A stretch of 40,109 nucleotides of DNA from a virus: UHGV virus genome UHGV-0115014; one strand, written 5' to 3'. The notes under the pieces were generated by a model, which saw only the letters and a list, made by a program, of their open reading frames with translations, did no database searches and had not been told where the DNA came from. Position numbers and translations under genes: made by a program. Shown here one piece after another: positions 9,591 through 30,057 of this stretch (the stretch's first letter is position 1; each line of letters starts with the position of its first letter).

Positions 9591-9627
9591 GTATATTGCG
9601 TTACTTATCCGCCAGGATGATGCTCGC

Positions 9628-9768
9628 GTGCACGGGCGTATAAAATCGATCAGCAGAAAACGTTGCGGTAAGTGCGGCGAGATAGTTCCTGTGAATTCAT
9701 GCCCGTGTAATGGTGACTCGCAATGCTGGGTGACCAAAGGCTGGCATGAAACGAAATTAATAGTGTGA
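9628..9768 (+). CDS. Small zinc-ribbon protein (start uncertain)
   Basis: C-terminal part of table ORF 9469..9768 lying beyond the stop of the overlapping upstream gene; Cys cluster CGKCGEIVPVNSCPCNGDSQC; possible GTG start near 9628 or frameshift/coupling from upstream gene. Confidence 0.25.
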   Translation: MHGRIKSISRKRCGKCGEIVPVNSCPCNGDSQCWVTKGWHETKLIV

Positions 9769-9776
9769 CATGTCAC
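9765..9776. repeat. 12-bp perfect palindrome GTGACATGTCAC (copy 1)
   Basis: Exact palindrome spanning stop of zinc-ribbon ORF and start of ORF 9765..9998. Confidence 0.6.
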
Positions 9777-9998
9777 GAAGGTGTTATGCCAAAAATACGC
9801 TACGACCTTGAAGATATGAGAGATAACTCAGCAAATTTTCCGAAAGAGGTTAAATTTCTCATGCATAAGTATGGTTGCGCCAGGAGGGATATAGTTATCG
9901 ACAGTCAGCACCCTTGCGGCGAGGATGTAATTTTCATTCGCGGTAAATGGGAAGGGTATCTTGACGAGAGTTTTTACGATGAATTTGATGGACTTTGA
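9765..9998 (+). CDS. Hypothetical protein
   Basis: 77 aa; GTG start lies inside the GTGACATGTCAC palindrome that also contains the upstream stop. Confidence 0.4.
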   Translation: MTCHEGVMPKIRYDLEDMRDNSANFPKEVKFLMHKYGCARRDIVIDSQHPCGEDVIFIRGKWEGYLDESFYDEFDGL

Positions 9999-10040
9999 AT
10001 ACTGCCGCCAACTATGGCGGCTTTATTTTGCATGGTACTA

Positions 10041-10055
10041 TTACCACAACGGTAA
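10041..10055. promoter_or_regulatory. TTACC-N5-GGTAA palindrome within direct repeat upstream of terminase small subunit
   Basis: TTACCACAACGGTAA inside repeat GGTA(N)CTATTACCAC x2, 18 bp before ATG 10073. Confidence 0.4.
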
Positions 10056-10072
10056 CTATTACCACGGTGGTT

Positions 10073-10669
10073 ATGATGCCTGCTGAACCTAAAACCTATA
10101 AACGCAAATCAACGCAATTTAAGCCGCTCACAGCAATGCAGGAGGCTTATTGCCAGTCATACATCAAAACGCCTGAAAACCAGACTCAGGCAGCGATTAA
10201 CGCAGGATTCTCCCCAAATACAGCGGCAGTTAAAGCCAGTGTCATGATGCGCGATGAACGCATTCAAAAACGGATTGCCGAGTTGATGGAGGAGCGCAAC
10301 AAACGAATGCGCGTCAGTGCTGATTACGTTCTCATGCGCTTGGTGGAGATCGACCAGATGGACGTGATCGATATCCTCAACGACGATGGGAGCCTTAAAC
10401 CAATCCGTGAGTGGCCGAAAATCTGGCGCACTACGCTTAGTGGCTTTGATCTGTCATCGACCATCATGAACATGAACGAGGATTCGATAGAGACAATCCT
10501 CAAAAAAATTAAATGGCCTGACAAGGTGAAGAACCTAGAACTGATTGGTAAGCATGTTGATGTCAACGCGTTCAAAGAACGTCTGGATGTTAATGTGAAT
10601 GTGACAATTGCTGATCGCATAGCAGCAGCCAGGAAGCGACTCAAAGAACGTCAGGATGGTAATCAGTGA
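10073..10669 (+). CDS. Terminase small subunit
   Basis: Table ORF 9995..10669 with start at MMPAEPK; block AMQEAYCQSYIKTPENQTQAAINAGFSPNTAAVKAS typical of phage terminase small subunits; stop overlaps start of large subunit. Confidence 0.75.
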   Translation: MMPAEPKTYKRKSTQFKPLTAMQEAYCQSYIKTPENQTQAAINAGFSPNTAAVKASVMMRDERIQKRIAELMEERNKRMRVSADYVLMRLVEIDQMDVIDILNDDGSLKPIREWPKIWRTTLSGFDLSSTIMNMNEDSIETILKKIKWPDKVKNLELIGKHVDVNAFKERLDVNVNVTIADRIAAARKRLKERQDGNQ

Positions 10670-12141
10670 CAGATACAGCGTTATCTCCTGAAGAGCAGTT
10701 GATCGAGGATATTGCAGGGTTCACTCACGATCCGCTTGGCTATGCCCTCTATGCGTTCCCGTGGGGGGAAGAGGGGACTGAATTAGCACATGCCACCGGT
10801 CCACGTAAGTGGCAGGCTGATGCGTTCCGAGAGATACGTGATCACCTGCAGAATCCAGAGACGCGCTATCAGCCGCTTATGCTGGCACGTGCTTCTGGTC
10901 ACGGTATTGGTAAATCCGCATTCATCTCAATGCTGATCAACTGGGGCATGTCCACTTGCGAGGATTGTAAGGTTGTGGTGACCGCCAACACCGACAACCA
11001 GCTACGAACGAAGACCTGGCCGGAAATTATCAAGTGGTCGAACCTTGCTATCACGAAAGACTGGTTTACCTGTACCGCTACTGCGATGTACAGCAATGAT
11101 CCTGGGCACGACAAGCGGTGGCGAGCTGACGCAATCCCCTGGTCTGAGCACAACACTGAGGCATTCGCCGGACTACACAACGAGCGCAAACGCATCATCG
11201 TGGTATTCGATGAAGCGTCGAACATTGCGGATCTGGTGTGGGAAGTTGCTGAGGGTGCGCTTACGGACGAAGACACTGAGATTATCTGGGTGGCGTTCGG
11301 AAACCCGACGCGTAATACCGGACGTTTCCGTGAATGTTTCCGCAAATATAAACACCGCTGGAAAACTGCGCAGATTGACAGCCGGACGGTGGAAGGTACT
11401 AACAAGCAGCAATTGCAGAAATGGGTTGATGACTACGGGGAAGACAGCGACTTCGTTAAAATCCGTGTGCGCGGCATATTCCCTGATGCATCTGAATTGC
11501 AGTTTATCCCTACCGGTCTTACTGACGAGGCAATGAAACGGGTGGTAACTGCTGCGCAGGTGGCACATGCACCGGTGATAATCGGTGTTGACCCGGCATA
11601 TTCAGGCGTTGATGACGCGGTGATATACCTGCGGCAGGGGTTGCATAGTAAGGTGCTATGGACTGGCAACAAGACCACCGACGATCTGATTATGGCGAAG
11701 CGCATCGCTGACTTTGAAGACCAGTATCAGGCTGACGCGGTATTCATCGACTTCGGTTACGGAACCGGTTTGAAGTCAATCGGTGATGGCTGGGGACGTA
11801 CATGGCAACTTGTTCCGTTCGGTGGTGCGTCAACTGACCCTCAGATGCTCAACAAGCGCGGGGAGATGTTCAACTCATGCAAGACATGGCTGAGGTTGGG
11901 CGGGATGCTGGATGACCAGGAAACAGCGGACGATCTGTCGGCGGCAGAGTACAAAGTTCGCGTGGACGGTAAAATCGTTATCGAACCGAAGGAAGATATC
12001 AAGGAGCGGCTTGGGCGTTCGCCGGGTAAAGGCGATGCGCTACTGCTGACGTTTGCGTTCCCTGTGTCGAAGCGTCTGCGAATTCCCGGGCAGCAGAACC
12101 AGCAAGGCAAGGCCATCACAGATTACGATCCATATGCTTAA
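10666..12141 (+). CDS. Terminase large subunit
   Basis: 491 aa; Walker A-like SGHGIGKS; directly follows small subunit and precedes head genes. Confidence 0.85.
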   Translation: MTDTALSPEEQLIEDIAGFTHDPLGYALYAFPWGEEGTELAHATGPRKWQADAFREIRDHLQNPETRYQPLMLARASGHGIGKSAFISMLINWGMSTCEDCKVVVTANTDNQLRTKTWPEIIKWSNLAITKDWFTCTATAMYSNDPGHDKRWRADAIPWSEHNTEAFAGLHNERKRIIVVFDEASNIADLVWEVAEGALTDEDTEIIWVAFGNPTRNTGRFRECFRKYKHRWKTAQIDSRTVEGTNKQQLQKWVDDYGEDSDFVKIRVRGIFPDASELQFIPTGLTDEAMKRVVTAAQVAHAPVIIGVDPAYSGVDDAVIYLRQGLHSKVLWTGNKTTDDLIMAKRIADFEDQYQADAVFIDFGYGTGLKSIGDGWGRTWQLVPFGGASTDPQMLNKRGEMFNSCKTWLRLGGMLDDQETADDLSAAEYKVRVDGKIVIEPKEDIKERLGRSPGKGDALLLTFAFPVSKRLRIPGQQNQQGKAITDYDPYA

Positions 12142-12191
12142 TCCGCTGGTGGGGATAATGTCGTTGATATCCTCTGATGAGGATAAAACAA

Positions 12192-12218
12192 AGCCAGCTC
12201 ATCGGCTGGCTGTTTGTG
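12192..12218. terminator. Putative bidirectional terminator between convergent terminase and Gp49-like genes
   Basis: AGCCAGC-TCATCG-GCTGGCT hairpin flanked by A-rich and T-rich runs. Confidence 0.4.
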
Positions 12219-12227
12219 ACATGTCAC
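12216..12227. repeat. 12-bp perfect palindrome GTGACATGTCAC (copy 2)
   Basis: Exact palindrome between convergent terminase-large and Gp49-like genes, adjacent to hairpin terminator. Confidence 0.6.
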
Positions 12228-12231
12228 GGTG

Positions 12232-12603
12232 TTATTGCTCGCTTAGCTTCTGCTTCAGCAAGTAACCTTCGAGCATCCAGATTTTGTTTACAGCATTCTG
12301 CCGGGCAATCTTCCGACCAATTTCTGCATCAAAGTTTTCCTGGCTTGCACAGGCGCTCTCTCCGGTGACGGTGAAGCCGTTGCGCAGCACCAGGACGCAG
12401 AACGTCAGCAGAGAAAGTGATTCGTGCGGCTGGTAGTTTACCTCTCCGCCAGTATGTTTCGCTTTTATGGCTTTGCCAAAGGCACCATCTTCTGCTGTGA
12501 AATATGCCTCCTGAGCAATAATGCCTTCGATATGGTCTGGCGTAACGCGCGGTGCCGTTTTGCCTTTCTCAACGATTTCTTTTTCGATTTGCTGGTCGTT
12601 CAT
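12232..12603 (-). CDS. Gp49-like phage protein
   Basis: 123 aa; convergent with terminase gene; family call by recalled similarity, function unknown. Confidence 0.5.
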   Translation of the reverse strand: MNDQQIEKEIVEKGKTAPRVTPDHIEGIIAQEAYFTAEDGAFGKAIKAKHTGGEVNYQPHESLSLLTFCVLVLRNGFTVTGESACASQENFDAEIGRKIARQNAVNKIWMLEGYLLKQKLSEQ

Positions 12604-12801
12604 AATCTCACCTTAAAAAAATGCCCGGCGAACCGGGCGAACTGGAAGCAATGAGTTATGCCTTCCGTGGCTGTACGGGTTTACAGCATGAAGTCATCGC
12701 AATGGCGTCCTGCTGTAAAAAGGGCGGTGATAGTCCTTCAAGGGAAACCATCACCGCCAAGCACCTGGAACTTCTGGTATCACGGTCCTTAGGCGTGATT
12801 C

Positions 12802-12878
12802 TGGCGTGGCATGCAGGATTCGAACCTGCGACCAACCGCTTAGAAGGCGGTTGCTCTGTCCAACTGAGCTAATGCCAC
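12802..12878 (-). tRNA. tRNA-Arg (anticodon UCU), phage-encoded
   Basis: 77-nt cloverleaf read on minus strand: acceptor stem GTGGCAT/ATGCCAC, D-arm GCTC...GAGC, anticodon stem ACCGC/GCGGT with loop CTTCTAA (anticodon TCT), T-arm GCAGG-TTCGAAT-CCTGC, discriminator G and encoded CCA. Confidence 0.85.
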
Positions 12879-13200
12879 AACGCTGAGAGCACTTAGCCTG
12901 TTAAGGCACCACACTTTGTCGCGGCTCCATAAATGCTCTCATCGTTGTACCCTCGTCTCTTCCGAGGCGTCACACCGAATCGCCGGGATGGTGAATCCCC
13001 GTGCGCGGAATAAAACCGCTCGACTTGCACATTCCGGCTACCTGGTTCGTTTGCCAGAGCAAGGGAGGGTGCCCCTTAAACGTATCCAGACCGCTATCGG
13101 CGCATGTGCCATACGCCGTACTGCTCAAAATAAAAGCTCACTCCACCTGTTCAATTTAACGACAAGCCAGTCAGGTTAGTAACCGGAATGAACTCTTTGG

Positions 13201-13215
13201 TTACCTGAAAGGTAA
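13201..13215. promoter_or_regulatory. TTACC-N5-GGTAA palindrome upstream of head gene block
   Basis: TTACCTGAAAGGTAA followed by AT-rich promoter-like sequence and ATGTGGTT (13260-13267), about 95 bp before ATG 13306. Confidence 0.4.
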
Positions 13216-13305
13216 TAATTTGTGCGTCAAATGTCAACTATCTACGATATATAAATCATATGTGGTTAAATTGGTAATAATTTAATTGCATACGGAGTCA
13301 TTGAT

Positions 13306-13512
13306 ATGTGCATGGGTAGCTCACCATCAGTGCCTGCAACACCAGAAGTTCAGGCAGCACCACAGGAGCAGGATGCCGCCGTTGTTGATGCCCGCGACGA
13401 AGAAACACGTCGCCGTCGCGCTGCTGCTGGTCGTAGTTCTACGCTGCTTACCGGTTCTCAGGGCGACACATCAACTGCTAATACCAGCGGTAAAACGCTG
13501 CTTGGTCAGTAA
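13306..13512 (+). CDS. Small virion-associated protein (possibly T7 gp6.7-like)
   Basis: 68 aa, MC N-terminus, Ala/Gln/Arg-rich, GGAG SD, immediately upstream of portal gene. Confidence 0.4.
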   Translation: MCMGSSPSVPATPEVQAAPQEQDAAVVDARDEETRRRRAAAGRSSTLLTGSQGDTSTANTSGKTLLGQ

Positions 13513-13526
13513 CCGGAGTCATTGAA

Positions 13527-15206
13527 ATGGCGGAAACAACTAAAGAGCGATTGAACAAACAGTTCGCACAACTTGAAAGCGAGCGTCAGTCGTTCGAGCC
13601 GCACTGGCGCGAGTTGAGTGATTACATCAACCCGCGTGGTTCCCGCTTTCTGACTTCTGAGGTCAACCGTAACGATCGACGCAATACACGCATTATTGAT
13701 TCGACCGGGACTATGGCGGCGCGCACTCTCGCCAGCGGCATGATGTCAGGCATCACAAGCCCCGCGCGTCCGTGGTTTCGCCTGGCTACGCCAGATCCTG
13801 AAATGATGGATTATGGCCCTGTTAAGTTGTGGCTTGAGGCGGTGCAGAACCGCATGAACGATATGTTCAATAAGTCGAATCTCTATCAGTCGCTGCCGCA
13901 GTTATACGGAAGCCTCGGCACATACAGCACTGGCGCAATGGCGGTGCTGGATGATGACGAGGACATCATTCGTACAATGCCATTCCCGATAGGAAGTTAC
14001 TACCTGGCTAACTCACCTCGTGGCAGTGTGGACACCTGTTTTCGCAAGTTCTCTATGACTGTTCGTCAGCTTGTTCAGGAGTTCGGACTAAATAACGTCA
14101 GCGAATCCGTAAAAAGCATGTGGGAAAGCGGCACCTACGAGAAGTGGATTGAAGTGATGCATTCGGTTTACCCGAACATTGACCGCGATACATCGAAGCT
14201 GGATAGCAAGAACAAGCCATTCAAATCGGTTTATTACGAGGTTGGTGGCGATAACGACAAGTTGTTGCGTGAGTCCGGATTCGATGAGTTTCCAATTATG
14301 GCTCCGCGCTGGGAAGTTAACGGCGAAGATGTTTATGGATCATCATGCCCGGGTATGCTGGCGCTTGGACCTGTTAAGGCATTGCAGCTTCTCCAGAAGC
14401 GCAAGTCGCAGTTGATTGATAAAGCCACCAATCCGCCGATGGTTGCTCCGACTTCCCTCAAGAATCAGCGCGCCTCCCTTCTTCCTGGCGACATCACGTA
14501 TATCGATCAGATTACTGGTCAGGATGGCTTCAGGCCTGCTTATCTGGTTAACCCCAGTACAGCAGATTTGGTGGCAGACATTCAGGACACTCGTCAAATC
14601 ATTAACAGCGCCTACTTTGTCGATCTGTTCATGATGTTGCAGAACATCAATACCCGCTCGATGCCTGTTGAAGCGGTGATCGAAATGAAAGAAGAAAAAC
14701 TTCTGATGTTGGGGCCGGTTCTGGAGCGTCTGAACGACGAATGTCTTAACCCTCTCATTGACCGCGCTTTCTCGATGATGGTGCGTAAAAACATGCTGCC
14801 GCCACCGCCTCACGCGATGGAAGGTATGCCCCTGAAGGTCGAATACATTTCCGTCATGGCTCAGGCGCAGAAGTCTATCGGCCTGTCCAGTCTGGCGTCC
14901 ACGGTTAACTTCATTGGTCAACTTGCGCAAGCGAAACCAGAAGCTCTCGACAAACTCAACGTTGATCAGGCGATCGATGCATTCGCTGATATGTCCGGAG
15001 TGTCTCCAACCGTCATTGTTCCGCAGGAACAGGTTGAGCAGGCTCGCCAGCAACGGGCACAGCAACAACAGCAGCAACAAATGATGGCGATGGGGATGGC
15101 GGCGGCACAGGGTGCCAAGACGCTAAGCGAAGCTAAAACTTCGGATCCGAGTGTTTTGTCAGCTATGGCGAATGCAGTTAGTGGTCAGGGTGGGCAATCA
15201 CAATGA
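13527..15206 (+). CDS. Portal protein (podovirus / T7 gp8-like head-to-tail connector)
   Basis: 559 aa; blocks MAARTLASGMMSGITSPARPWFRL and the Gln-rich C-terminus QARQQRAQQQQQQQMMAMGMAAAQGA parallel T7 gp8 as recalled; follows terminase genes. Confidence 0.8.
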   Translation: MAETTKERLNKQFAQLESERQSFEPHWRELSDYINPRGSRFLTSEVNRNDRRNTRIIDSTGTMAARTLASGMMSGITSPARPWFRLATPDPEMMDYGPVKLWLEAVQNRMNDMFNKSNLYQSLPQLYGSLGTYSTGAMAVLDDDEDIIRTMPFPIGSYYLANSPRGSVDTCFRKFSMTVRQLVQEFGLNNVSESVKSMWESGTYEKWIEVMHSVYPNIDRDTSKLDSKNKPFKSVYYEVGGDNDKLLRESGFDEFPIMAPRWEVNGEDVYGSSCPGMLALGPVKALQLLQKRKSQLIDKATNPPMVAPTSLKNQRASLLPGDITYIDQITGQDGFRPAYLVNPSTADLVADIQDTRQIINSAYFVDLFMMLQNINTRSMPVEAVIEMKEEKLLMLGPVLERLNDECLNPLIDRAFSMMVRKNMLPPPPHAMEGMPLKVEYISVMAQAQKSIGLSSLASTVNFIGQLAQAKPEALDKLNVDQAIDAFADMSGVSPTVIVPQEQVEQARQQRAQQQQQQQMMAMGMAAAQGAKTLSEAKTSDPSVLSAMANAVSGQGGQSQ

Positions 15207-15499
15207 CAGATTACGAAGATGATCAACTGAAAGAAGAAAACGCCCGTAAGCAACGTGACATGGCACAGCGTGAAATTGATGACATTCGCTTTGTCATGAG
15301 CAGTGAACAGGGGCGTCGCGTTGTCTGGTCGGTGCTGGAGAAAGGCCGTGTGTTTTCCGCTATCTCACCGATGGACGCTATGGCAATGGCATTTAATGAG
15401 GGGCAACGCAATCTGGCGCTGGAACTGTTTCAGCGCGTTATGGCGCATTGCCCTGAACAGTATTTGAAGATGGCCAAAGAGGCCAGTGAACAGGAGTGA
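15203..15499 (+). CDS. Hypothetical head-morphogenesis protein
   Basis: 98-aa ORF coupled by ATGA overlap to portal gene. Confidence 0.5.
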   Translation: MTDYEDDQLKEENARKQRDMAQREIDDIRFVMSSEQGRRVVWSVLEKGRVFSAISPMDAMAMAFNEGQRNLALELFQRVMAHCPEQYLKMAKEASEQE

Positions 15500-15501
15500 T
15501 C

Positions 15502-16197
15502 ATGAATTTATTTGAGCGTTTGCTGTATCGCCGTCTTTGCAATGAGCAACCAGTCGATGGTGGAGCAGCTCCGGCTGCGTCAGAACCGTCAGCGCCTGCA
15601 GGTGATAACCCTGCTCCAGTTGGTGATCCATCACAACAAGAAGGTGATAAGCCGCAACCTGTTGCTGATGGCGATAAACCTGCTGATGACAAAAAGCCTG
15701 AAAGCGATAAGCAGGGTGAAAAAAAGGACGGCGATAAACCGGATGGTGCGCCGGAGAAGTACGAGTTTCAGGCTGCCGAAGGCGTAGAGCTGGATACAGA
15801 AGCGTTGAAGGAATTCGAGCCAGTGGCGCGAGAACTTAACCTGACCAACGAGCAAGCGCAAAAGCTGGTTGATGCTTATCCGAAGATTCTGGCAGGTGTT
15901 CAGCAGCGCCAGGCAGAAGCCTGGCAGAAAACAACCGAGCAGTGGGCTGCGGATGTAAAAGCTGACAAAGAAATCGGTGGCGACAAGTTGATTTCTAACC
16001 TTAGCGCCGCACAGCGTGCGCTTGACCAGTTCGGGACACCTGAACTCAAAGAATATCTGAACACCACCGGGCTGGGTAATCACCCTGATCTGGTCAAAAC
16101 GTTCGTGAAAATCGGAAAGGCGATGTCTGAAGATGGCATGGTCACCGGTGGTAATGAAGGCCAGCGTAGTGCGGCCGAAGTGCTCTATGGCAAATAA
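15502..16197 (+). CDS. Putative scaffolding protein
   Basis: Acidic Pro/Asp/Lys-rich N-terminal half and helical C-terminal half; between portal and capsid genes; ATG 15502 preferred over GTG 15496 because of CAGGAG SD spacing. Confidence 0.5.
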   Translation: MNLFERLLYRRLCNEQPVDGGAAPAASEPSAPAGDNPAPVGDPSQQEGDKPQPVADGDKPADDKKPESDKQGEKKDGDKPDGAPEKYEFQAAEGVELDTEALKEFEPVARELNLTNEQAQKLVDAYPKILAGVQQRQAEAWQKTTEQWAADVKADKEIGGDKLISNLSAAQRALDQFGTPELKEYLNTTGLGNHPDLVKTFVKIGKAMSEDGMVTGGNEGQRSAAEVLYGK

Positions 16198-16211
16198 GAG
16201 AGGAAATGACA

Positions 16212-17198: not shown

Positions 17199-17249
17199 CG
17201 CCTGTTATTAACCTGTGGGTCGTAACAGACCCACTAATGGAGAAAGAAG

Positions 17250-17687: not shown

Positions 17688-17697
17688 GGTGATATTG

Positions 17698-18033: not shown

Positions 18034-18045
18034 GCCTCGCGGATG

Positions 18046-18072
18046 AGACAAGGGGCTTCGGCCCCTTTATTG
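18046..18072 (+). terminator. Intrinsic terminator inside head-tail gene block
   Basis: AAGGGGC-TTCG-GCCCCTT hairpin followed by TATT, after ORF ending 18033. Confidence 0.55.
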
Positions 18073-18083
18073 CAGGAGTGTAT

Positions 18084-19012: not shown

Positions 19013-21477
19013 TGGCTATCAGTTGGATCCAGCCCAGCTTTGCCGGTGGTGAGATTGGACCGTCTTTGTACGGTCGTATCGACATGGCGAAGTACCAGGT
19101 GGCATTGCGCAAGTGCGATAACTTTATCGTGCGGCAGTATGGCGGCGTTGAGAATCGACCTGGTACGCGTTTTGTCGGTGCCGCCAAATACCCAAATCGG
19201 AAATGCCGCCTGATCCCGTTCCAGTTCTCGACGGTTCAGACTTATGCTCTGGAGTTCGGACACCAGTACATGCGCGTTATCAAAGATGGTGCGTTGGTGC
19301 TGAACAGCAGCAATGTTATTTATGAAATTGCCACGCCATATACTGAAGCCGATCTGTTCCGAATTAAATTCACGCAAAGCGCAGACGTGCTTACGCTGGT
19401 TCATCCGGCATACCCGCCGAAAGAGTTGCGCCGCTATGCGCATGACAACTGGCAACTGGTTGATGTGGTAACGAAGAACGGGCCATTTGAAGATATCAAT
19501 ATTGACGAGTCAGTGACGGTTTATGCCAGCGCCAGCACCGGGACAATTACGTTAACGGCAAGCGCCTCAATTTTTGGCGCGGAGCAGGTAGGCAAATTGT
19601 TCTATCTGGAACAGCCTGCAGTGGATTCTGTGCCGGTATGGGAAACCAGTAAGAGTACGTCGATTGGCGATATTCGCCGTGCAGACAGTAACTACTATCG
19701 CGCCGTTACAGCAGGCAAAACAGGCACTTTGCGCCCTTCGCATACAGAAGGCACATCATGGGATGGCTGGGGCGGATCCGGTGATGATGATACCGGCATT
19801 GAGTGGGAGTATCTGCACAGTGGTTTTGGCATTGCCCGTATCTCTGCTGCAAATGGAACTACTGCAACTGCCGAGGTGATTTCCTATATCCCTTCGCAGG
19901 TAGTTGGCGAGGATAATGCCAGCTATAAATGGGCTAAATATGCCTGGAACAGTATTAACGGTTATCCTGGCACTGTTGTTTATTATCAACAACGCCTTTA
20001 CTTCGCCGCATCGACTGCGTTCCCTCAGACTATCTGGGCCAGCCGTACCGGGGATTATAAGGATTTTGGCAAAAGCAATCCTACGCAGGATGACGACAGA
20101 ATTATCTACACCTATGCCGGGCGTCAGGTTAATGAGATCCGTCACCTGATTGATGTTGGTTCGCTGGTGGCGCTGACTTCCGGAGGTGAGTACGTCATCA
20201 CTGGCGACCAGAACAAAGTGCTTACCCCATCATCATTTGCATTCAGCTCTCAGGGATCAAATGGCTCGAGCAATGTCCCACCAATTGCCGTGGCGAATAT
20301 TGCTCTGTTCGTCCAGGAGAAAGGCAGTGTTGTCCGTGATCTGGCCTACTCATTCGATGTTGACGGCTATCAGGGGAACGACCTGACCATCCTTGCCAAT
20401 CATCTTTTTCAGAAGCACAGCATTGTTGACTGGTGCTTCTCGATTGTCCCTTACTCCAGCGCCTTCTGCATTCGTGATGACGGTAAATTACTGGTGATGA
20501 CCTATTTGCGTGATCAGCAGGTTTTTGCATGGGCACCACAATCCAGTACCGGAAAATATGAAAGCACATGCAGTATCAGCGAAGGCAATGAAGATGCGGT
20601 GTATTTCGTCGTTAACCGAACCGTTAACGGGCAAACAGTGAGATACATAGAGCGACTGTCCAGCCGTTTATTTACCAGCGATGAAGATGCTTTCTTTGTT
20701 GATTCTGGCCTTAGCTATGATGGAAGAAATACGTCTGACAGAACGATGACCATCACTGGTGGTTCTGGTGAATGGGATTACCGTGCGGAATATACAATCA
20801 GTGTTTCTGGTGGTGCGTACTTCACCAGTAGTGATGTCGGCGCGCAACTACAGTTCCCTTATACCGGAACTGATCCTGATACTGAAGTGTCAAAAGAATT
20901 ACGTTGCGACATTATTTCTGTAACCAGCAATACCGCTGTAGTGGTTCGTGCTAACAGGAACGTCCCGCCATCCCTCAGGAATGTGGCCACCACGAACTGG
21001 CAGATGGCGCGCCGGACATTTGGAGGCCTGTCTCATCTTGAAGGCCAGACCGTAAACATTCTCTCTGATGCGAACGTGGAACCACAGAAAGTGGTTTCCG
21101 GAGGTGCCGTCACGCTGGAATCACCTGGGGCTGTAGTGCACATCGGCCTGCCAATAACTGCTGAATTCGAAACACTGGATATCAACATTAACGGACAGGA
21201 AACGCTGCTGGACAAAAAACAGGTGATCCCGTCCGTTACTCTGGTTGTGAATGCCAGTCGCGGCATCTGGGCGACTACGCCCGGCGGTAAATGGTACGAA
21301 TATCCACAGCGTGAATTCGAGTTCTACGATGATCCTGTTGATGATGCTACCGGAAAAGTAGAAGTGAAACTGGACAGTAACTGGGGCAAAAACGGGCGTG
21401 TAAAAATCCGTCAGCTTGACCCGTTGCCGCTGTCTGTTCTTGCCGTTATTCCTCGCCTTACTGTTGGGGGATTCTGA
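19012..21477 (+). CDS. Tail tubular protein B-like / nozzle protein (gp12-like position)
   Basis: 821 aa directly after gp11-like gene; size and position as in podovirus tail modules. Confidence 0.5.
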   Translation: MAISWIQPSFAGGEIGPSLYGRIDMAKYQVALRKCDNFIVRQYGGVENRPGTRFVGAAKYPNRKCRLIPFQFSTVQTYALEFGHQYMRVIKDGALVLNSSNVIYEIATPYTEADLFRIKFTQSADVLTLVHPAYPPKELRRYAHDNWQLVDVVTKNGPFEDINIDESVTVYASASTGTITLTASASIFGAEQVGKLFYLEQPAVDSVPVWETSKSTSIGDIRRADSNYYRAVTAGKTGTLRPSHTEGTSWDGWGGSGDDDTGIEWEYLHSGFGIARISAANGTTATAEVISYIPSQVVGEDNASYKWAKYAWNSINGYPGTVVYYQQRLYFAASTAFPQTIWASRTGDYKDFGKSNPTQDDDRIIYTYAGRQVNEIRHLIDVGSLVALTSGGEYVITGDQNKVLTPSSFAFSSQGSNGSSNVPPIAVANIALFVQEKGSVVRDLAYSFDVDGYQGNDLTILANHLFQKHSIVDWCFSIVPYSSAFCIRDDGKLLVMTYLRDQQVFAWAPQSSTGKYESTCSISEGNEDAVYFVVNRTVNGQTVRYIERLSSRLFTSDEDAFFVDSGLSYDGRNTSDRTMTITGGSGEWDYRAEYTISVSGGAYFTSSDVGAQLQFPYTGTDPDTEVSKELRCDIISVTSNTAVVVRANRNVPPSLRNVATTNWQMARRTFGGLSHLEGQTVNILSDANVEPQKVVSGGAVTLESPGAVVHIGLPITAEFETLDININGQETLLDKKQVIPSVTLVVNASRGIWATTPGGKWYEYPQREFEFYDDPVDDATGKVEVKLDSNWGKNGRVKIRQLDPLPLSVLAVIPRLTVGGF

Positions 21478-22486: not shown

Positions 22487-24999
22487 TGCCAGTCGTACCA
22501 ACAGTATCCGGCCGTCAGGTTCAGAGCCGTGGAGTTCAGTCAGCAGGCTTGCAGACGTTTTCTCAGCCAGGTATTGGTGATGCTTTTGTTCGGGCAGGGA
22601 CAGAGGCAATTGATGTTTTTGGTCAGGCAAAACAGCGTGCCAATATCGCTCTGGCTCAGGAGGCATCTCTTAACCTCAGTCAGATAAGCAGTGATCTGCT
22701 GAATAATCCTGAAACAGGATTGCTTAACCTGAAAGGGAAAAATGCTATTGGAAAAGGCCATGAGTATACGCAGCAGTTTGATGCTCAGGTCGAACAACTG
22801 GCTATGTCGCTGCCGGATGAACAGGCTCGTAATGCTTTCATGCAGCAGGCGCAGCAGCAGCGCATTCAGTTCACTACGCAGGCAGGGCGGCACGAGATAG
22901 GGCAAATAAATGCCTACGAAGAAGGCCAGTTTCAGGCTACGCTGCTGAACAATGGTAAAAATGCCGCAGCATTGTATGGCGACAACGCCGCATACGTATT
23001 GGCTAATAAGCAAACTTTCCAGCAAATTGAGGATTACGGCATTGCACATGGCTGGAGTGACGAGCAAATCCAGGCCAAGAAAATCGAGTTTAAAGAGAAG
23101 GTTGCTGATGCTGCATTGTCCCAGTGGTCGGCAAACAATGCGACCGCATTCATCCAAAGTAATGGCGAGTTAAGTGATACTGCTGCTGGAGCTCGCCGTG
23201 CTGTAGCAGATAGTGACTCTTCCGAGCGTGCCCGTGGCATACGCAACAATAACCCAGGAAATCTCGAATACAGCAAAACTAATCCGTGGGTAGGCCAGAC
23301 CGGTGATGATGGTCGATTTGCTAAATTCGAAACACCTGAACACGGGATTCGTGCATTAGGGCGGAACCTGATGTCGTATCAGAGGCAGGGTATTGATACC
23401 GTCAGCGAGATAATTAATCGCTGGGCACCGCCTACTGATAAAAATGACACTATGTCGTATATCAAAGCAGTGTGCGAACAACTTGGCGTTTCTGCTGATG
23501 AGCCTCTCGATGCATCAAATCCTGATACCCTGAAGGCGCTTTGTGCAGCCATTATCCATCATGAGAACGGTAGCCAGCCATACAGTGATCAGCAGTTAAC
23601 TGCTGGTGTCAGTGCAGCACTTGGTTTATCAACAATTCCAACCAACACCAAACGCTATACCGGTAATGCAGCATTCGATGCGGCATCTCCTGAGGCTCAG
23701 GCAAGTTTTATGCGGCAGGCGGATCAACTGCGTCGGCAGCAGCAGGCTGAATATAAAACGATGATTGACAGCCAGGTTCGCGATGCGACGGCTGCGTATA
23801 TGCGTGGCGTTGAATTTCCTAACCCACCTGGTGAGGCTGATTTTATTGCAGCTTATGGAGTCAGAGAAGGAAACCTGCGATATACCGAGTTTAAGAATAC
23901 GCAGATCGCCGGACAGTATATAGGCTCTTTCCGCAACATGCCGACAAGCAGCATTACAGCATATGTTGAGCAATTACGCCCGGATACTGGTGAGACAGGG
24001 GAGGGTTATGCGGCTCGCGCAGCTCTTTATGACAACGTTGTTTCGGCTGCAAATCAGGTGATAAAGCAGCGGCAGTCTGATCCTGTGCAGTTCTCTCTTG
24101 CCTCTGGACAGGCAAAGCCTATCGACATGAGCAATAAGGATAACTTTGGACAGAGCGTTGCCTTGCGTGCCGCTCAGGTCAGTGACCTTGCTAAGTCATA
24201 TGGCACTCCACTGACGTTCTTTTCCAAAGACGAGGCCAATCAGATCGGTGTTTTTTTTCGTGATGCTCCAGTTTCCCAACAGGCAGCATATCTCGATACC
24301 ATCAGGCAGAGCACTGGTGGTGGGCAGGTGTATATGTCAGCACTACAGCAGATCAGTGCCAACGCTCCATCTGCTGCCGTTGCCGGGATACTGATGGACA
24401 AGCCTGGTGGTATTTTGGCAGAAAAAAACTGGTTTAATCCGGATGTTTCCGTGTCTCCTGAAACCGCTGCGCAGACAATTCTTACTGGCGCGGCGGCTCG
24501 TAAAGGTACTGATGATGCGAAAGGTATTCCGATGCCTAAAGATGCTGATCTTCGCCTTGAGTTTTCTGACATGGTGAAGGATGCATTTGCTGGTGATGCT
24601 CAGGGGGCATCAATGGCATACGAGATCGCAAAGGACTATTACGCTGGTGTGATGGCGAAAAAAGGCGTGGTATCAGGCGAAATTGACAATGATATCTGGA
24701 AACAGGCTGTTAACGTAGCTACAGGTGGCGTGCATGACTATAACGGAATGGGGAATGTTCTTTTGCCGTGGGGAATGTCTGCAGAGCAATTCGATAAGCA
24801 GGTTAATCAGGCTTGGAATGAACAAGTTGTTGGCACAGGGATAAAAACACCGCCTGGTCAGTATGGTTTGCAAAGTTACGGCGATAGTCAGTACCTGGTG
24901 AAACTTGGTACTGGTTATCTGCTAAAAGATGATGGTTCTCCCGTTGTTCTTGATCTGACACAGAAGCGTCAGAGATTCTCCGGAGATATTCCGCAATGA
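22486..24999 (+). CDS. Internal virion / ejection protein (gp15-like position), with RNNNPGNLEY motif region
   Basis: Start at ATG 22486 overlapping upstream stop (table ORF begins at 22411 in the same frame); 837 aa. Confidence 0.55.
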   Translation: MPVVPTVSGRQVQSRGVQSAGLQTFSQPGIGDAFVRAGTEAIDVFGQAKQRANIALAQEASLNLSQISSDLLNNPETGLLNLKGKNAIGKGHEYTQQFDAQVEQLAMSLPDEQARNAFMQQAQQQRIQFTTQAGRHEIGQINAYEEGQFQATLLNNGKNAAALYGDNAAYVLANKQTFQQIEDYGIAHGWSDEQIQAKKIEFKEKVADAALSQWSANNATAFIQSNGELSDTAAGARRAVADSDSSERARGIRNNNPGNLEYSKTNPWVGQTGDDGRFAKFETPEHGIRALGRNLMSYQRQGIDTVSEIINRWAPPTDKNDTMSYIKAVCEQLGVSADEPLDASNPDTLKALCAAIIHHENGSQPYSDQQLTAGVSAALGLSTIPTNTKRYTGNAAFDAASPEAQASFMRQADQLRRQQQAEYKTMIDSQVRDATAAYMRGVEFPNPPGEADFIAAYGVREGNLRYTEFKNTQIAGQYIGSFRNMPTSSITAYVEQLRPDTGETGEGYAARAALYDNVVSAANQVIKQRQSDPVQFSLASGQAKPIDMSNKDNFGQSVALRAAQVSDLAKSYGTPLTFFSKDEANQIGVFFRDAPVSQQAAYLDTIRQSTGGGQVYMSALQQISANAPSAAVAGILMDKPGGILAEKNWFNPDVSVSPETAAQTILTGAAARKGTDDAKGIPMPKDADLRLEFSDMVKDAFAGDAQGASMAYEIAKDYYAGVMAKKGVVSGEIDNDIWKQAVNVATGGVHDYNGMGNVLLPWGMSAEQFDKQVNQAWNEQVVGTGIKTPPGQYGLQSYGDSQYLVKLGTGYLLKDDGSPVVLDLTQKRQRFSGDIPQ

Positions 25000-26798
25000 G
25001 TTACTTTGGCCTTAATCCAGTAAACCAGAATCAGCAGCTTGACGAAGCAGCATCAAATCCAGCGGGCTTTAACAGCGATGTTGGTTTTTTCGACAATGCT
25101 GTAAGAGCGGCATTGTCTGGTTTGTACTCCGGGCTGGTGGCAAAGCCAGACCAGTTGCTATGGGCAGGAATGGATAAAATCGTATCCCCGATTGCTCAGT
25201 TTGTTAACGAAAACACCTCGTTCAATGATACTTCAGTTTCATACATTGCCGAGCAGAGAAAACTAGCAGAGCAGCAGGTTAAGCGGCTGACGCCTGATGC
25301 GGCGACAACCGGAACCGCCGGGCAGGTCCTTTATGGGTTGTTCGATATGGGCGGGCAGGCTGTTGTCGGTACAACGCTCGGTGGTCCGGTCGGAGGTGCT
25401 GCGGCGGTAACTTCGCTACAGGGTTTTTCTGAGTTTGAACGGCTGACAGCACAGGGTGTTGATTTCAGGACGGCGCAGGAAGCGGGATTAGTGCAGGGTA
25501 TTACTGCTGGTGCCGGAACACTGATCCCTATGAGCCTCGGGTTACGTGCTGGTGGTGCGCTGGCGGAAGGTGTGGCGGCTCAGCTTGCGCGGACGGGTGA
25601 AAGTTCAGTGCGACGCGCCGCAGCAACAGCAGTACGTGCAACGCCAGATATTGCCTATGCCGCAGGTACAAATATTGCGTTCGGTATGGCACAGCGTGGG
25701 CTTACTGCAAAAACGCTTCGTGATGGTGGCTATAGCGAAATGGCTAACCAGTATGATGTGTTGGATCGACAGGCAATTGCTATTGATGCTGTTCTTGGGG
25801 TGGCGTTTGGTGGTGTCGGCAGATTTATTAACTCTCGCGGCGAGTCTACAAACGCACCAAATTTTTCACCAGTTGATGTCGATGCTGCACTGGCGGCGAA
25901 TGCCGCTCATCATGCTGAAATTGATATTGCGCCCGGCGTGCCGATCAACGTGCTTTCGCGCAATTCTCACATTCAGGCTCTGCGAAAAGCTATGTCTGAT
26001 GTTAGCCAGGGGAGACCTGTAGACGTTGCCAGCATTGTTGAGTCTGCATCTTTCAGTGAAATTCCTGGGCGCAAGAGTCTGCTGTCTCAGGCAGTTAATG
26101 AGGCTCTGTCATCTGTAGATGATGGAGTAACGGCGCGCGCTATAGAAAATCGGTTGCTTGAAGAACAGGCCGCGCAGCTTTTGCCGCGTGGAGATAGACA
26201 GGTTTACCAGTCTGAAATCGCTAATAGCCAACGAATTATTGAAAATCTCACTAAACAGCGTGCACAAATTCTTGCAGAAGAGCCAACCGGTAGCGGTAAA
26301 GCTTTGTCTCGTGCTCGATCAGATAAACAGGCCAGACTTCGCGATATTGACCAACGAATCCGGCAGGCACAAGAACGCCTGGAATTTTCCCGTAACGCGT
26401 TGGCACCGCATGAGCCTGGCGGTCAGTTTTTTGAAGCTCGAGCAGAACTGGCACGGAGACAGCAGGCTGAAAGTGAACTTAATGCTCAGGCTGTTTCATT
26501 CTATAAAACAGCAGAGGTCAGGACGCCAGACGAAGTAGCTCCTTTTGAGCCTGATAAAATATTGCAACAGGCAGAACAAAAAATGATGGCGGATCAGGCA
26601 GGAGATATTGATCTGCGCATAGCTGAAGACTCGCTGCTTGAATCACCTGACATGATAATCACCGTGCTGGATGATGATGGTAATCCACAATCGCGCAGCG
26701 CGCGTGAAGTACTGGATGAAGCGAACAGGGAAAGTGAGCAGGCAATACAGGATTCCAGCCTGTTTGATGTCGCTGTGGCGTGTTTCTTGAGAGGTTAA
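24996..26798 (+). CDS. Internal virion / ejection protein
   Basis: 600 aa, Gly/Ala-rich central region, coupled to neighbours. Confidence 0.5.
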   Translation: MSYFGLNPVNQNQQLDEAASNPAGFNSDVGFFDNAVRAALSGLYSGLVAKPDQLLWAGMDKIVSPIAQFVNENTSFNDTSVSYIAEQRKLAEQQVKRLTPDAATTGTAGQVLYGLFDMGGQAVVGTTLGGPVGGAAAVTSLQGFSEFERLTAQGVDFRTAQEAGLVQGITAGAGTLIPMSLGLRAGGALAEGVAAQLARTGESSVRRAAATAVRATPDIAYAAGTNIAFGMAQRGLTAKTLRDGGYSEMANQYDVLDRQAIAIDAVLGVAFGGVGRFINSRGESTNAPNFSPVDVDAALAANAAHHAEIDIAPGVPINVLSRNSHIQALRKAMSDVSQGRPVDVASIVESASFSEIPGRKSLLSQAVNEALSSVDDGVTARAIENRLLEEQAAQLLPRGDRQVYQSEIANSQRIIENLTKQRAQILAEEPTGSGKALSRARSDKQARLRDIDQRIRQAQERLEFSRNALAPHEPGGQFFEARAELARRQQAESELNAQAVSFYKTAEVRTPDEVAPFEPDKILQQAEQKMMADQAGDIDLRIAEDSLLESPDMIITVLDDDGNPQSRSAREVLDEANRESEQAIQDSSLFDVAVACFLRG

Positions 26799-26803
26799 AT
26801 TAA

Positions 26804-29278
26804 ATGAGACAGGAATGTATACAAGCGGTCCAGCAGGCGGCGCAGCGCACGTTAACGGCGCGAGAAATACAGAACATTGAAGACCGCATTTATCGAAATA
26901 TGCGCTCCATTGCTCGTGATGACCCGATGTCGTGGCGACAACTTTCCGAATCAGAACGGTTGTATCGTGCAGCACAATTGGCATCTGAAGAATTACAGCG
27001 AGAAGCGGCATTAAAGAAACGTCGTGTGGCCCTCACTATAGCCGCACGTCAGAGATTGGATAAATTTATCAATAGCTATCAAGGGGCTGATGGGAAACTT
27101 GGCGCTCTTAACCGTACTATTGCTTTTAATGCAGACGGTAAATCGAATTTCCTCTCTGTTGAATCCAGAACAAAAGCCACCCGTGATTATGCATTGAGTC
27201 AATTGCAGGAGGCATTCGAAGCAGTTGATCCTCGCTTTTTTGGTCTGTTTGAAGATGAAGCGGGCGTACGTGACCTGGTATATGAAATGCGGGGGCAAAA
27301 TACTGGCAATGCTAAAGCAAGAAAAGGTGCTAAGGCGTGGAGAGAAGTTACAGAGCTGCTGCGCCGCCGGTTTAATGATGCTGGTGGGGACATTGGCTAT
27401 CTCGAAAACTGGGGGATCCCTCAACATCATTCTATGGAAAAGGTTGGGGCGGTATCAAAGGATAAGTGGGTTAGCGATGTTATAGGTAAGCTGGATCGCA
27501 AATATTATACCCGAGCCGATGGACAACTGATGAACGATGCCGAGTTGTCTGAATTTCTTGGAGAGGCTTATAACACGATCGCTACTGGTGGGCTGAATAA
27601 GCTTACTGATACCGGAATGCGAATTTCCGGCGCACGTGCTAACCGTGGTAATGCATCACGACAGATACATTTCAAAGATGCAGATTCCTATCTGCAATAT
27701 CAGCAACTTTATGGCGATCGCTCTCTATGGGAAATCATGGTCGGTCACCTTGAAGGTATCAGTAAAGATATTGCACTGGTGGAAACATATGGCCCAAACC
27801 CCGATCATGTTTTCCGCTCTCTTCTTGATCAGGTGAAGGCAGAAACGGCAACAGCTAACCCGAGTAAAACCGGTAGCGTCGAGCGTCTGGCGAACAAAAC
27901 AGAGAACCTGTACAACTTTATTTCCGGAAAAACACAGCCTGTAGCGAATCCGCACATCGCGCGATGGTCTGACAATATCCGCAACTGGCTGGTTGCCAGC
28001 AGACTCGGATCCGCGTTGCTGTCATCGTTCTCTGATCTTGGAACCATGTATCTGTCTGCGAAGGTTACCAACCTTCCAATGAACCAGTTATTCCGCAACC
28101 AGCTTGAAGCTATGGACCCAACGAACCGTACAGAACTTGCGCGGGCGCGCCGCGCTGGTCTGGCGATGGAATCTCTACTTGGCAGCGTTAACCGCTGGGC
28201 GATGGATAATATGGGGCCGTCTGTGTCTCGTTGGGCTGCAACGGCGGTAATGCGTGCCAGTGGGCTTACAGCATGGTCAGATGCGCACAAGCGCGCCTAT
28301 GGCGTAACCATGATGGGAAGCCTGGGAGAAGTAGTGTCACGGACACCAGACCTTCGTCGCCTCGATGACTCTGATTTTCGTATCCTGAAAAGCAAAGGGA
28401 TTACTGACACAGACTGGAGCGTATGGAAGTTGGCGCAACAGGAGGACTGGGGGAACGGTAATAATACGATGCTGACACCGGAAAGCATTATGCGTATCCC
28501 TGATTCAGCAGTTAAACATCTTGGTGAGCCTGAACGCGTGAAATTTGAGGCAATGCGTAAACTGCTCGGTGCCGTAACTGAAGAAGTTGATATGGCTGTT
28601 ATTACACCGGGCGCACGTGAACAGATGTTCGTAGGGTCTGGTCTTCAGCGTGGAACATGGAAAGGTGAATTAACGAGAAGTGTTTTCCTGTTTAAATCGT
28701 TCCCTATCTCTGTAGTTATGCGTCACTGGCATAGAGCTATGGGGATGCCGTCTGCTGGTGGGCGTGCAGCATATATAGCAACGTTTTTAGCAAGCACAAC
28801 CATGCTTGGTGCTCTTTCCATGCAGATTACTGATCTTATTAATGGGAGAAATCCAAAAGAAATGACCGGTGACAACATGGTTAAATTCTGGATGAATGCA
28901 TTTTTAAAAGGTGGTGGTGCAGGGTTGTATGGTGATTTTCTTTTCTCTGACCACACCAGGTACGGAAGCGGCGCGTTGGCGTCGATGCTTGGCCCGGTAG
29001 CTGGTCTGGTTGATGACGTAGTGAAGATAGCTCAGGGCATACCGCTAAATGCTGTGGAAGGGAAGAGTGAGCAGACTGGTGGTGATCTGGTTAAGCTGGG
29101 GAAGGGGCTGATGCCAGGTGCGAATCTCTGGTACTTGAAGGCGGCTCTCGATCATATGATCTTTAACCAGATGCAGGAGTATTTTTCACCAGGCTATTTG
29201 CGTAAAATGGAGCAACGTTCGAAGAAAGAGTTTAACCAGACATACTGGTGGCGACCTCAGGATGTCACTCCGCAATAA
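26804..29278 (+). CDS. Internal virion / ejection protein (gp16-like position)
   Basis: 824 aa; last of three consecutive large proteins in the core/ejection block. Confidence 0.5.
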   Translation: MRQECIQAVQQAAQRTLTAREIQNIEDRIYRNMRSIARDDPMSWRQLSESERLYRAAQLASEELQREAALKKRRVALTIAARQRLDKFINSYQGADGKLGALNRTIAFNADGKSNFLSVESRTKATRDYALSQLQEAFEAVDPRFFGLFEDEAGVRDLVYEMRGQNTGNAKARKGAKAWREVTELLRRRFNDAGGDIGYLENWGIPQHHSMEKVGAVSKDKWVSDVIGKLDRKYYTRADGQLMNDAELSEFLGEAYNTIATGGLNKLTDTGMRISGARANRGNASRQIHFKDADSYLQYQQLYGDRSLWEIMVGHLEGISKDIALVETYGPNPDHVFRSLLDQVKAETATANPSKTGSVERLANKTENLYNFISGKTQPVANPHIARWSDNIRNWLVASRLGSALLSSFSDLGTMYLSAKVTNLPMNQLFRNQLEAMDPTNRTELARARRAGLAMESLLGSVNRWAMDNMGPSVSRWAATAVMRASGLTAWSDAHKRAYGVTMMGSLGEVVSRTPDLRRLDDSDFRILKSKGITDTDWSVWKLAQQEDWGNGNNTMLTPESIMRIPDSAVKHLGEPERVKFEAMRKLLGAVTEEVDMAVITPGAREQMFVGSGLQRGTWKGELTRSVFLFKSFPISVVMRHWHRAMGMPSAGGRAAYIATFLASTTMLGALSMQITDLINGRNPKEMTGDNMVKFWMNAFLKGGGAGLYGDFLFSDHTRYGSGALASMLGPVAGLVDDVVKIAQGIPLNAVEGKSEQTGGDLVKLGKGLMPGANLWYLKAALDHMIFNQMQEYFSPGYLRKMEQRSKKEFNQTYWWRPQDVTPQ

Positions 29279-29307
29279 GGAAGTGTTGTGTTTTTAATTA
29301 TTTTGAG

Positions 29308-29463
29308 TGTGATAATTTCTGGTGGATTGTTATTTATTGACCGCTACAAATATTTTCTTAACCCTCAGACTCAAGCTATTTGCTGGTTCATCTTTGTTGT
29401 GCAGGGAGTAGTTCTTGTTGCAAGCCTTATTGAGGGGAGGCCTCTGATTTTTAATGGGTAAAT
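29308..29463 (+). CDS. Small hydrophobic protein (51 aa)
   Basis: Unlisted small ORF with GTG start; one TM-like segment AICWFIFVVQGVVLVASLI. Confidence 0.2.
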
Positions 29464-29473
29464 AGGTGACTAC

Positions 29474-29770
29474 ATGCAAGCTATAGGATTCATTGTTTAT
29501 ATCGTCGTTGGTCTTTTTCAGTTGGCAGCAATTATGGCTGGGCTTGAATCATGGTGGGGGTTGCACTGGGTAATTGCAGCTCCCGTTGCTTTTGTCGTGA
29601 GTTATATTCCGTTTGTTGGAGCGATTGTTGGTATGATTGGCGCTGTGGATGTATGGCGGTGGGAGTGGTGGCAGGCTGGCCTTCTCTTCTTTGGTGGGAT
29701 CATCTTTGCTATTGTCTGCGGTGGAATGTCATCATTTTTCGAACGGCTATCATTCAGAAAAGGAACGTGA
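29474..29770 (+). CDS. Small integral membrane protein (about 3 TM segments)
   Basis: 98 aa, strongly hydrophobic; stop codon lies inside a GTGACATGTCAC palindrome. Confidence 0.5.
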   Translation: MQAIGFIVYIVVGLFQLAAIMAGLESWWGLHWVIAAPVAFVVSYIPFVGAIVGMIGAVDVWRWEWWQAGLLFFGGIIFAIVCGGMSSFFERLSFRKGT

Positions 29771-29778
29771 CATGTCAC
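29767..29778. repeat. 12-bp perfect palindrome GTGACATGTCAC (copy 3)
   Basis: Exact palindrome containing stop of membrane protein gene 29474..29770 and ATG of plus-strand ORF 29772..29915. Confidence 0.6.
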
Positions 29779-29801
29779 AGGCCGCTTTCGCGGCCTTGTT
29801 T

Positions 29802-30032: not shown

Positions 30033-30057
30033 CACAAAAAAGCCCGCGGCGCGGGCT
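30033..30057 (-). terminator. Intrinsic terminator after YafO-like gene
   Basis: Minus-strand GCCCGCG-CCG-CGGGC hairpin followed by TTTTTTGTGG; overlaps stop codon. Confidence 0.6.

Follow-up and report, generated by a model that had tools for sequence, protein, structure and literature searches.

Three exact copies of a 12-bp palindrome, GTGACATGTCAC, lie at gene boundaries in the virus genome UHGV-0115014, a stretch of 40,109 nucleotides referred to here as the window. As judged by comparative sequence analysis, the palindrome is probably the operator of a small, predicted ribbon-helix-helix (RHH) regulator (epsilon15 gp49, phiV10 gp55, and N15 gp46-like proteins; phrog_536) acting at operon boundaries. 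The motif, its conservation, the specificity of its spacing, its linkage to the regulator gene, and its placement by terminators are direct observations. This proposed operator/regulator pair is unreported, and its placement at the 3′ ends of transcription units is unusual. The window is a prophage of the phiV10/epsilon15 type, a podovirus of the genus Uetakevirus, and is ∼97% identical to phiV10 over most of its length.

A palindrome at the 3′ ends of three transcription units

The copies occupy positions 9765–9776 (A), 12216–12227 (B), and 29767–29778 (C), as the first-pass annotation had reported, and there are none elsewhere in the window. None of 100 dinucleotide-preserving shuffles of the window contains any copy. 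Each copy is located 3′ of the last stop codon of a transcription unit and 5′ of an intrinsic terminator (Table 1), and the three units that end in this way are the early-right operon, an accessory gene convergent with terL, and the virion operon. The distance from palindrome to terminator in Uetakeviruses is 0–41 nt, except at copy A of the window, where the insertion of an open reading frame (ORF) of 70 amino acids extends it to 227 nt. This ORF is missing from phiV10, TL-2011b, and epsilon15, in which the terminator lies 22–41 nt past the palindrome. On the minus strand at copy B, the stop codon of the accessory gene (12232) is followed by 4 nt, the palindrome, a further 4 nt, and the terminator hairpin, which also follows terL on the plus strand. 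At copy C, the hairpin begins at the very next base after the palindrome.

In two cases the TGA within the palindrome serves as the upstream stop codon, as first proposed, terminating the ORFs at 9469–9768 and 29474–29770. The accompanying proposal that the palindrome also supplies the downstream start is doubtful. For the ORF after copy A, the likeliest start is ATG 9786, which has GAAGG as a Shine-Dalgarno sequence ahead of it, and this start is the one given by the PGAP annotation of a near-identical prophage in E. coli TO6. Copy B lies in no gene, having the terL terminator on one side and the stop of the convergent gene on the other.

The palindrome is retained across relatives that have otherwise diverged. 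Epsilon15 has only ∼75% DNA identity, yet carries three exact copies at the same syntenic places, at 39612 (A), 2142 (B), and 19517 (C). In phiV10 the exact 12-mer is present at 2262 and 19493, corresponding to copies B and C, and a third copy, with one mismatch, straddles the ends of the linear record. SPN1S, Tyrion, and Kp4865-1 have three exact copies at syntenic places, PAT1 and BUCT554 each have two exact copies and one single-mismatch copy, and TL-2011b has two copies. Considered site by site, copy A is exact and syntenic in epsilon15, SPN1S, Tyrion, PAT1, Kp4865-1, TL-2011b, and nearly all of 80 IMG/VR relatives; copy B is syntenic in phiV10, epsilon15, SPN1S, Tyrion, BUCT554, and Kp4865-1; and copy C is syntenic in phiV10, epsilon15, SPN1S, Tyrion, PAT1, BUCT554, and TL-2011b, where its upstream flanks are unrelated. 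The hosts of these phages belong to Escherichia, Salmonella, Enterobacter, and Klebsiella, the phage DNA is ∼75%–80% identical, and the immediate flanks of the 12-mer differ. Coding constraint does not account for the conservation of copy A, because only its first four bases are coding (the G of the last codon and the TGA) and the 8 nt past the stop are equally conserved.

All three copies separate conserved from variable DNA, so the reported location at boundaries between core and accessory genes holds, and in related phages the syntenic 12-mers mark mosaic breakpoints. A sample of the host chromosome, ∼60 kb of flanking sequence, contains no copy of the 12-mer, as would be expected if it is not a host-wide repeat. 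The GenBank record of epsilon15 annotates repressor, IHF, RNase III, and terminator sites, and nothing at the palindrome positions.

Two further sequence features were observed. The heptamer GGTGTTA is found directly after copy B (12228–12234) and 3 nt past copy A (9780–9786). At copy B it includes the complement of the TAA stop of the accessory gene, and TAACACC before the palindrome ends several unrelated accessory genes in relatives; either the conserved element extends into the heptamer, or the heptamer is a shared scar of recombination. The sole one-mismatch match in the window, GTGACATGGCAC at 15255–15266, is within the coding sequence of a small gene after the portal gene. It is kept in phiV10 and TL-2011b, but not in epsilon15, and is probably coding sequence or chance.

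Linkage of the motif to a regulator gene in unrelated phages

The gene that ends in copy A is the counterpart of epsilon15 gp49 and phiV10 gp55, which encodes a protein of 112 amino acids assigned to PHROG 536, “transcriptional regulator.” At 50% identity the family forms ∼150 clusters, and it is distributed among Uetakeviruses and P2-like, N15-like, ZF40-like, and Vibrio phages. We located the regulator stop codon by tblastn in 203 phage loci chosen only by regulator homology, with distant subfamilies queried separately so as to reach beyond the close phiV10-like relatives. The motif overlaps the regulator stop codon in nearly all of the phiV10-like loci, as GTGACGCGTCAC in 51 of 55 Yersinia P2-like loci, and as GTGAC(TG/GG)GTCAC in all 51 N15/phiKO2-like loci. 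In phiKO2 itself, GTGACTGGTCAC is on the stop codon, and there are two more copies. The Pectobacterium myovirus ZF40 has three exact copies of TGTGACATGTCACA, one of which is 3 bp past the stop of gp22, the regulator homolog, and three copies of the motif are present in Vibrio phage K303, one of them lying just 5′ of terS. Where the regulator ends in TAA, the motif is retained and shifted 2–14 nt downstream. Sequences downstream of the motif vary widely across the 203 loci.

The spacing of the half-sites is strict. Inverted GTGAC/GTCAC repeats with a 2-bp spacer number 155, 57, 110, 8, and 5 in five phage groups, among them the phiV10-like, Yersinia, N15-like, ZF40, and K303 groups, while spacers of 0, 1, or 3–7 bp and everted or direct arrangements are at about zero, that is, at background. 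In an independent set of 29 species-representative bacterial genomes, the motif is present in 28 of the 29 loci, with ∼48 copies against ∼0.5 expected, and copies with a spacer of 1, 3, or 4 bp are absent from these 29 loci (570 kb). The order of stop codon, palindrome, and terminator recurs in unrelated prophages of Serratia, Symbiopectobacterium, Citrobacter, and Rosenbergiella.

The central dinucleotide tracks the protein subfamily and its predicted β strand: RKLE(L/I)xLD occurs with AT, NEIRARLE with GC, and TRRDWVLE with TG. It is independent of the host, as illustrated by the Klebsiella phages phiKO2 (TG) and Kp4865-1 (AT), and this difference within one host genus favors a phage-encoded over a host-encoded reader. 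The palindrome is a dyad-symmetric site that both co-occurs and co-varies with the regulator, as expected of an RHH operator. The regulatory role that had been listed among the possibilities is supported in the form of a putative protein-binding DNA site, the motif being tied to a predicted RHH DNA-binding gene in at least four unrelated phage lineages, whereas the translational coupling offered with it is not.

The regulator is predicted to comprise a basic N-terminal arm, an RHH domain, and a C-terminal Cys-rich tail that probably binds zinc. The only sequence relative found in Pfam, NCBIfam, and PDB searches is the RHH protein YbfE, to which the family has a weak match. Structure prediction from database homologs of the regulator gave a moderate model only, with MatP among its top fold matches.

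In the window, the sequence indicates that the regulator gene is an N-terminally truncated pseudogene from which a deletion has removed the predicted RHH domain. Aligned homology to phiV10 and TL-2011b ends upstream of ∼9565, where an Eae-like fragment is fused to the remnant. The PGAP annotation of E. coli TO6 describes the regulator equivalent as “incomplete; missing N-terminus” and the Eae-like fragment as a pseudogene missing its C terminus. This junction is present in one of 5426 complete E. coli genomes, that of TO6. Because the regulator has lost its predicted RHH half, the three sites in the window would be orphaned as operators, unless the protein came from a related phage.

Some copies in other prophages have additional features. 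In a Providencia alcalifaciens prophage (L225, 10355–10398), two copies of GTGACATGTCAC are 32 bp apart around the regulator stop, and the second sits within a 26-bp perfect palindrome, cactatcGTGACATGTCACgatagtg. Prophages of Citrobacter, Enterobacter, and Rosenbergiella have a copy (L213, 232; L215, 3890; L216, 4164) inside a small minus-strand ORF of ∼107–136 amino acids, apparently in the early-left region, and ZF40 gp08 (162 amino acids) also holds a copy, at 5125. These may represent a conserved intragenic operator.

Action at operon boundaries and alternative explanations

We infer from these patterns that the regulator binds the motif and, less firmly, that it works as a roadblock. The two inverted GTGAC half-sites, exactly 2 bp apart, would be contacted by a symmetric dimer of the RHH protein. 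One site overlaps the regulator’s own stop codon or comes directly after it, so that gene and site travel as one cassette. The bound regulator would act on elongating RNA polymerase at operon boundaries, and the most likely mode of action, given the positions of the sites, is a roadblock or insulator. This would restrict read-through between adjacent or convergent units once the product of the last early gene accumulates.

Several observations weigh against this model. The covariation argument rests on few lineages, four or five, and the SPN1S group has a different N-terminal arm of the regulator, yet the same motif. Neither Pfam nor NCBIfam gave a significant match for the regulator or the neighboring ORFs other than PF13876 in the accessory gene, and a profile search of the regulator against PDB sequences found no significant relative. 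The motif was not found in the 23 kb examined around an Aeromonas regulator homolog (30% identity). Some sites in ZF40 and the N15-like phages are within coding sequence (a cII-like gene, gp08, and repA) rather than at operon ends, so one mechanism may not fit all sites, and the role of the motif may be broader than boundary control. A roadblock immediately upstream of an intrinsic terminator looks redundant, and at copy A no convergent transcription faces the palindrome. Full-text searches for the 12-mers and a 14-mer returned no relevant paper; the literature on Uetakevirus transcription likewise yielded nothing useful.

The main alternative, which we consider unlikely, is terminator-proximal antitermination. 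The palindrome-bound regulator would be loaded onto RNA polymerase at the end of the early operon, like lambda Q, and the terminator-resistant polymerase would read into terS and the late genes, making the regulator the early-to-late switch of Uetakeviruses. The gene order suits such a role: no early gene comes after the regulator, and a single terminator separates it from the late operon immediately downstream, which is the position of Q in lambdoid phages. At each of the three sites, transcription also runs through the palindrome before it reaches the terminator, and the regulator’s Cys-rich tail has counterparts in many polymerase-binding factors. However, the distance from palindrome to terminator at site A varies (22, 41, and 227 nt), and read-through at B and C would yield only RNA antisense to terL or to accessory genes. 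Both ZF40 and phiKO2 encode Q-like antiterminators of their own, P2-like phages use other late activators, and the late promoters of epsilon15 carry their own repressor operators. Moreover, this prophage type persists with a truncated regulator, both in the window and in E. coli TO6. Two related candidates were rejected. A Q-type antiterminator binding element is a DNA site at a late promoter with a promoter-proximal pause, and no promoter-like sequence was found at sites A and B, while the palindrome lies anywhere from ∼75 to ∼300 bp from the presumed late promoter among relatives. For a late-promoter activator site, spacing relative to the promoter region is too variable, and a 213-bp ORF intervenes in the window.

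A recombination or module-exchange junction was proposed at the outset, in which the 12-mer and its adjoining terminator would be the crossover point for swaps of accessory cassettes between phages. As a description this is accurate: homology between 97%-identical relatives stops precisely at the edge of the palindrome in all three places, at least eight unrelated accessory genes end 4–7 nt from copy B, and the DNA after copy A and before copy C is likewise of several different kinds. The 12-mer is, like a mosaic boundary sequence, short, conserved, and placed right where homology breaks, but that describes location rather than mechanism, and any conserved functional element bordered by dispensable genes would resemble a junction. 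As a primary function, exchange is quite improbable, because ZF40 and N15-like repA also contain the motif, there within conserved coding sequence that shows no mosaic breaks, and no site-specific recombinase travels with it. The strict 2-bp spacing and subfamily-specific center point instead to protein recognition, and 12 bp is very short for homologous exchange. The initial suggestion of a homing-endonuclease or restriction target found no support, as the motif has no accompanying nuclease and phages conserve the site instead of avoiding it.

It is very unlikely that the palindrome is the site of a host protein, such as a matS-like site for MatP or a SlmA-type site, that links the phage to host chromosome organization. 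The half-sites are identical to those of matS, which MatP also contacts through an RHH domain (PMC12756933), MatP is among the fold matches noted above, and all hosts that carry the motif are Enterobacterales or Vibrio. The matS consensus is nonetheless a 13-bp sequence, GTGAC[AG]N[TC]GTCAC, with a 3-bp spacer (PMC3603311). The phage spacer is always 2 bp. A 3-bp version is absent from the three large groups (phiV10-like, Yersinia, and N15-like) and from all 29 bacterial-genome loci, and turns up once in each of the two small groups, ZF40 and K303; identity with matS was rejected on this basis. True matS is avoided in prophages. The phage site is physically tied to a phage gene, and its center varies among phages of one host genus, following the phage protein. 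The SlmA consensus, GTGAGTACTCAC, differs from the palindrome at the four central bases.

There is an equally slim chance that the element acts at the RNA level, as a 3′-UTR hairpin that stabilizes mRNA, aids termination, or couples translation of the downstream ORF. The motif always falls within the transcribed 3′ end, ahead of a terminator, or else shortly precedes a Shine-Dalgarno sequence (copy A of the window and the N15-like and K303-like sites), and in predicted folds it can stack beside the terminator hairpin. Alone, however, it forms only a 4-bp stem of −1.2 kcal/mol, no better than shuffles, and its “loop” is also palindromic in most families, which RNA would not require. It functions in both orientations and is found where different strands are transcribed, no Rfam family matches at the palindromes, and it is linked to a DNA-binding-type protein. 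That same fold and the lack of a T-tract exclude the 12-mer as an intrinsic terminator; the real terminators are the adjacent hairpins.

The remaining identities were dismissed on sequence or context: an immunity-repressor operator (the annotated epsilon15 sites differ, ATTACC-N4-GGTAAT), a pac or cos site (the motif is also in cos-type P2-like phages and far from terminase genes), a ParB/SopB partition centromere (no partition genes in the window or other Uetakeviruses, and phiKO2 partition sites distinct from the motif), and a CRP-like site (the motif reads TGTGA-N4-TCACA, and CRP requires N6).

Related systems and the prophage setting

In function, the proposed operator most resembles the stoperators of mycobacteriophages or the operators of RHH plasmid proteins. 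Its symmetry, copy number, presumed binder, and location set it apart from both. Stoperators of Cluster A mycobacteriophages (L5 gp71) are asymmetric 13-mers, ∼20–30 per genome, oriented with transcription and bound by the immunity repressor. Like the phage motif, for which binding is predicted, they are short dispersed protein-binding sites in short intergenic stretches or at gene ends, and are thought to act on elongating RNA polymerase. The phage motif, in contrast, has three symmetric sites and a presumed binder that is an early lytic, predicted RHH protein, the immunity repressor using ATTACC-N4-GGTAAT. A stoperator network was rejected as an identity on these grounds, the repressor motif of the window being at 10040–10055 and not at the palindromes.

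The operators of CopG, Arc/Mnt, Omega, and ParG share with it a small RHH binder (predicted here), a short dyad-symmetric target, and co-inheritance of gene and site. Theirs overlap promoters ahead of the gene that is regulated, which is often the repressor’s own, whereas the phage motif is at the 3′ end of the regulator gene, by terminators, and its regulator has an extra Cys-rich C-terminal domain. The SopB centromere sites of N15 and phiKO2 are also few palindrome copies scattered in a phage genome, including inside repA and the late-gene region. The annotated phiKO2 partition sites are nevertheless at other positions than GTGACTGGTCAC, and Uetakeviruses integrate and are without a ParA/SopA partner.

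The matS/MatP system has the same inverted GTGAC/GTCAC half-sites, an RHH binder (as predicted for the phage motif), and few sites over long DNA, and MatP reads matS DNA through its RHH domain (PMC12756933). It differs in that matS is chromosomal, confined to Ter, and has a degenerate center, while the phage motif, which stands next to its own phage gene, has a strict spacer of 2 bp and a center that varies with the subfamily. The prophage with its three palindromes adjoins guaA. The phage regulator lacks the four-helix bundle and coiled coil of MatP, and no sequence similarity to MatP is detectable. The bridging of distant sites by MatP suggests looping as an alternative mode of action for the phage motif.

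Table 1. Palindrome copies, terminators, and adjacent genes in UHGV-0115014
Feature	Coordinates	Strand	Remarks
Copy A, GTGACATGTCAC	9765–9776	none	Overlaps stop of regulator remnant (G/TGA/CATGTCAC); 3′ end of early-right operon
Copy B, GTGACATGTCAC	12216–12227	none	Intergenic, between convergent terL and accessory gene
Copy C, GTGACATGTCAC	29767–29778	none	End of virion structural (late) operon; TGA is the stop of ORF 29474–29770
Eae-like accessory gene, 5′ fragment	9339–9590	+	Deletion-fused to regulator remnant; matches “Eae protein” of PAS61
Regulator 3′ remnant	9565–9768	+	C-terminal ∼67 codons, Cys-rich half; pseudogene, predicted N-terminal RHH half deleted
Optional 70-aa ORF between copy A and terminator	9786–9998	+	No family match
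Intrinsic terminator downstream of copy A	10004–10021	+	End of early-right operon; epsilon15 equivalent annotated at 39646–39672
Terminator hairpin with T-tract, right after copy B	12192–12211	−	phiV10 equivalent annotated at 2238–2257
Accessory gene, N4 Gp49 / Sf6 gene 66 family	12232–12603	−	Pfam PF13876, E = 1.8e-34; stop 4 nt from copy B; hypervariable slot
Intrinsic terminator abutting copy C	29779–29796	+	Annotated in phiV10 (19505–19522) and epsilon15 (19531–19556)

The prophage is integrated next to guaA of E. coli, and the flanks of the near-identical TO6 prophage, with guaA on one side and yfgI/yfgH on the other, agree with the ends of the window. Between the early terminator and terS is ATTACCACAACGGTAA (10040–10055, with a second half-repeat to ∼10075), which matches the ATTACC-N4-GGTAA immunity-repressor operators annotated in epsilon15 and suggests that the late operon promoter may be directly repressor controlled. 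The variable region between terL and the portal operon contains a tRNA-Arg(TCT) gene (12802–12878, minus strand). The accessory island after copy C includes a YafO-family toxin gene (30057–30629, minus) and a BRO-N gene (30904–31599, minus), according to the PGAP annotation of the equivalent TO6 prophage; in TL-2011b, the same slot holds an Arc/Ant module. Just upstream of the BRO-N gene, Rfam identifies adjacent C4 antisense RNA (RF01695) and isrK Hfq-binding RNA (RF01394) at 31647–31832 (minus), and together with BRO-N this pair looks like an antisense-controlled antirepressor module of the P1/N15 immI type.

At its broadest, and only as a speculation that we hold to be improbable, the RHH/Cys-rich protein and GTGAC-NN-GTCAC could form a portable “boundary element” system of podo-, myo-, and siphoviruses of Enterobacterales and Vibrio. 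Roadblocks or MatP-like bridging would then insulate transcriptional or topological domains (terminase, morphogenesis, and the rest), and matS half-sites at another spacing might evade or interfere with host MatP.

The proposed operator offers a candidate DNA target for a protein family so far annotated only as “hypothetical” or “transcriptional regulator.” It makes testable predictions, namely binding, a strict 2-bp spacer, a subfamily-specific center, and effects on read-through at three defined terminators, in phages of practical use, since phiV10 and epsilon15-type phages serve as reporter and typing phages. It would also account for the window, in which the predicted DNA-binding half of the regulator is gone and all three sites are kept. 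The three sites flank the slots where accessory (moron) genes swap, and the regulation that they would mediate, at operon 3′ ends rather than promoters, has been little studied in enterobacterial phages.

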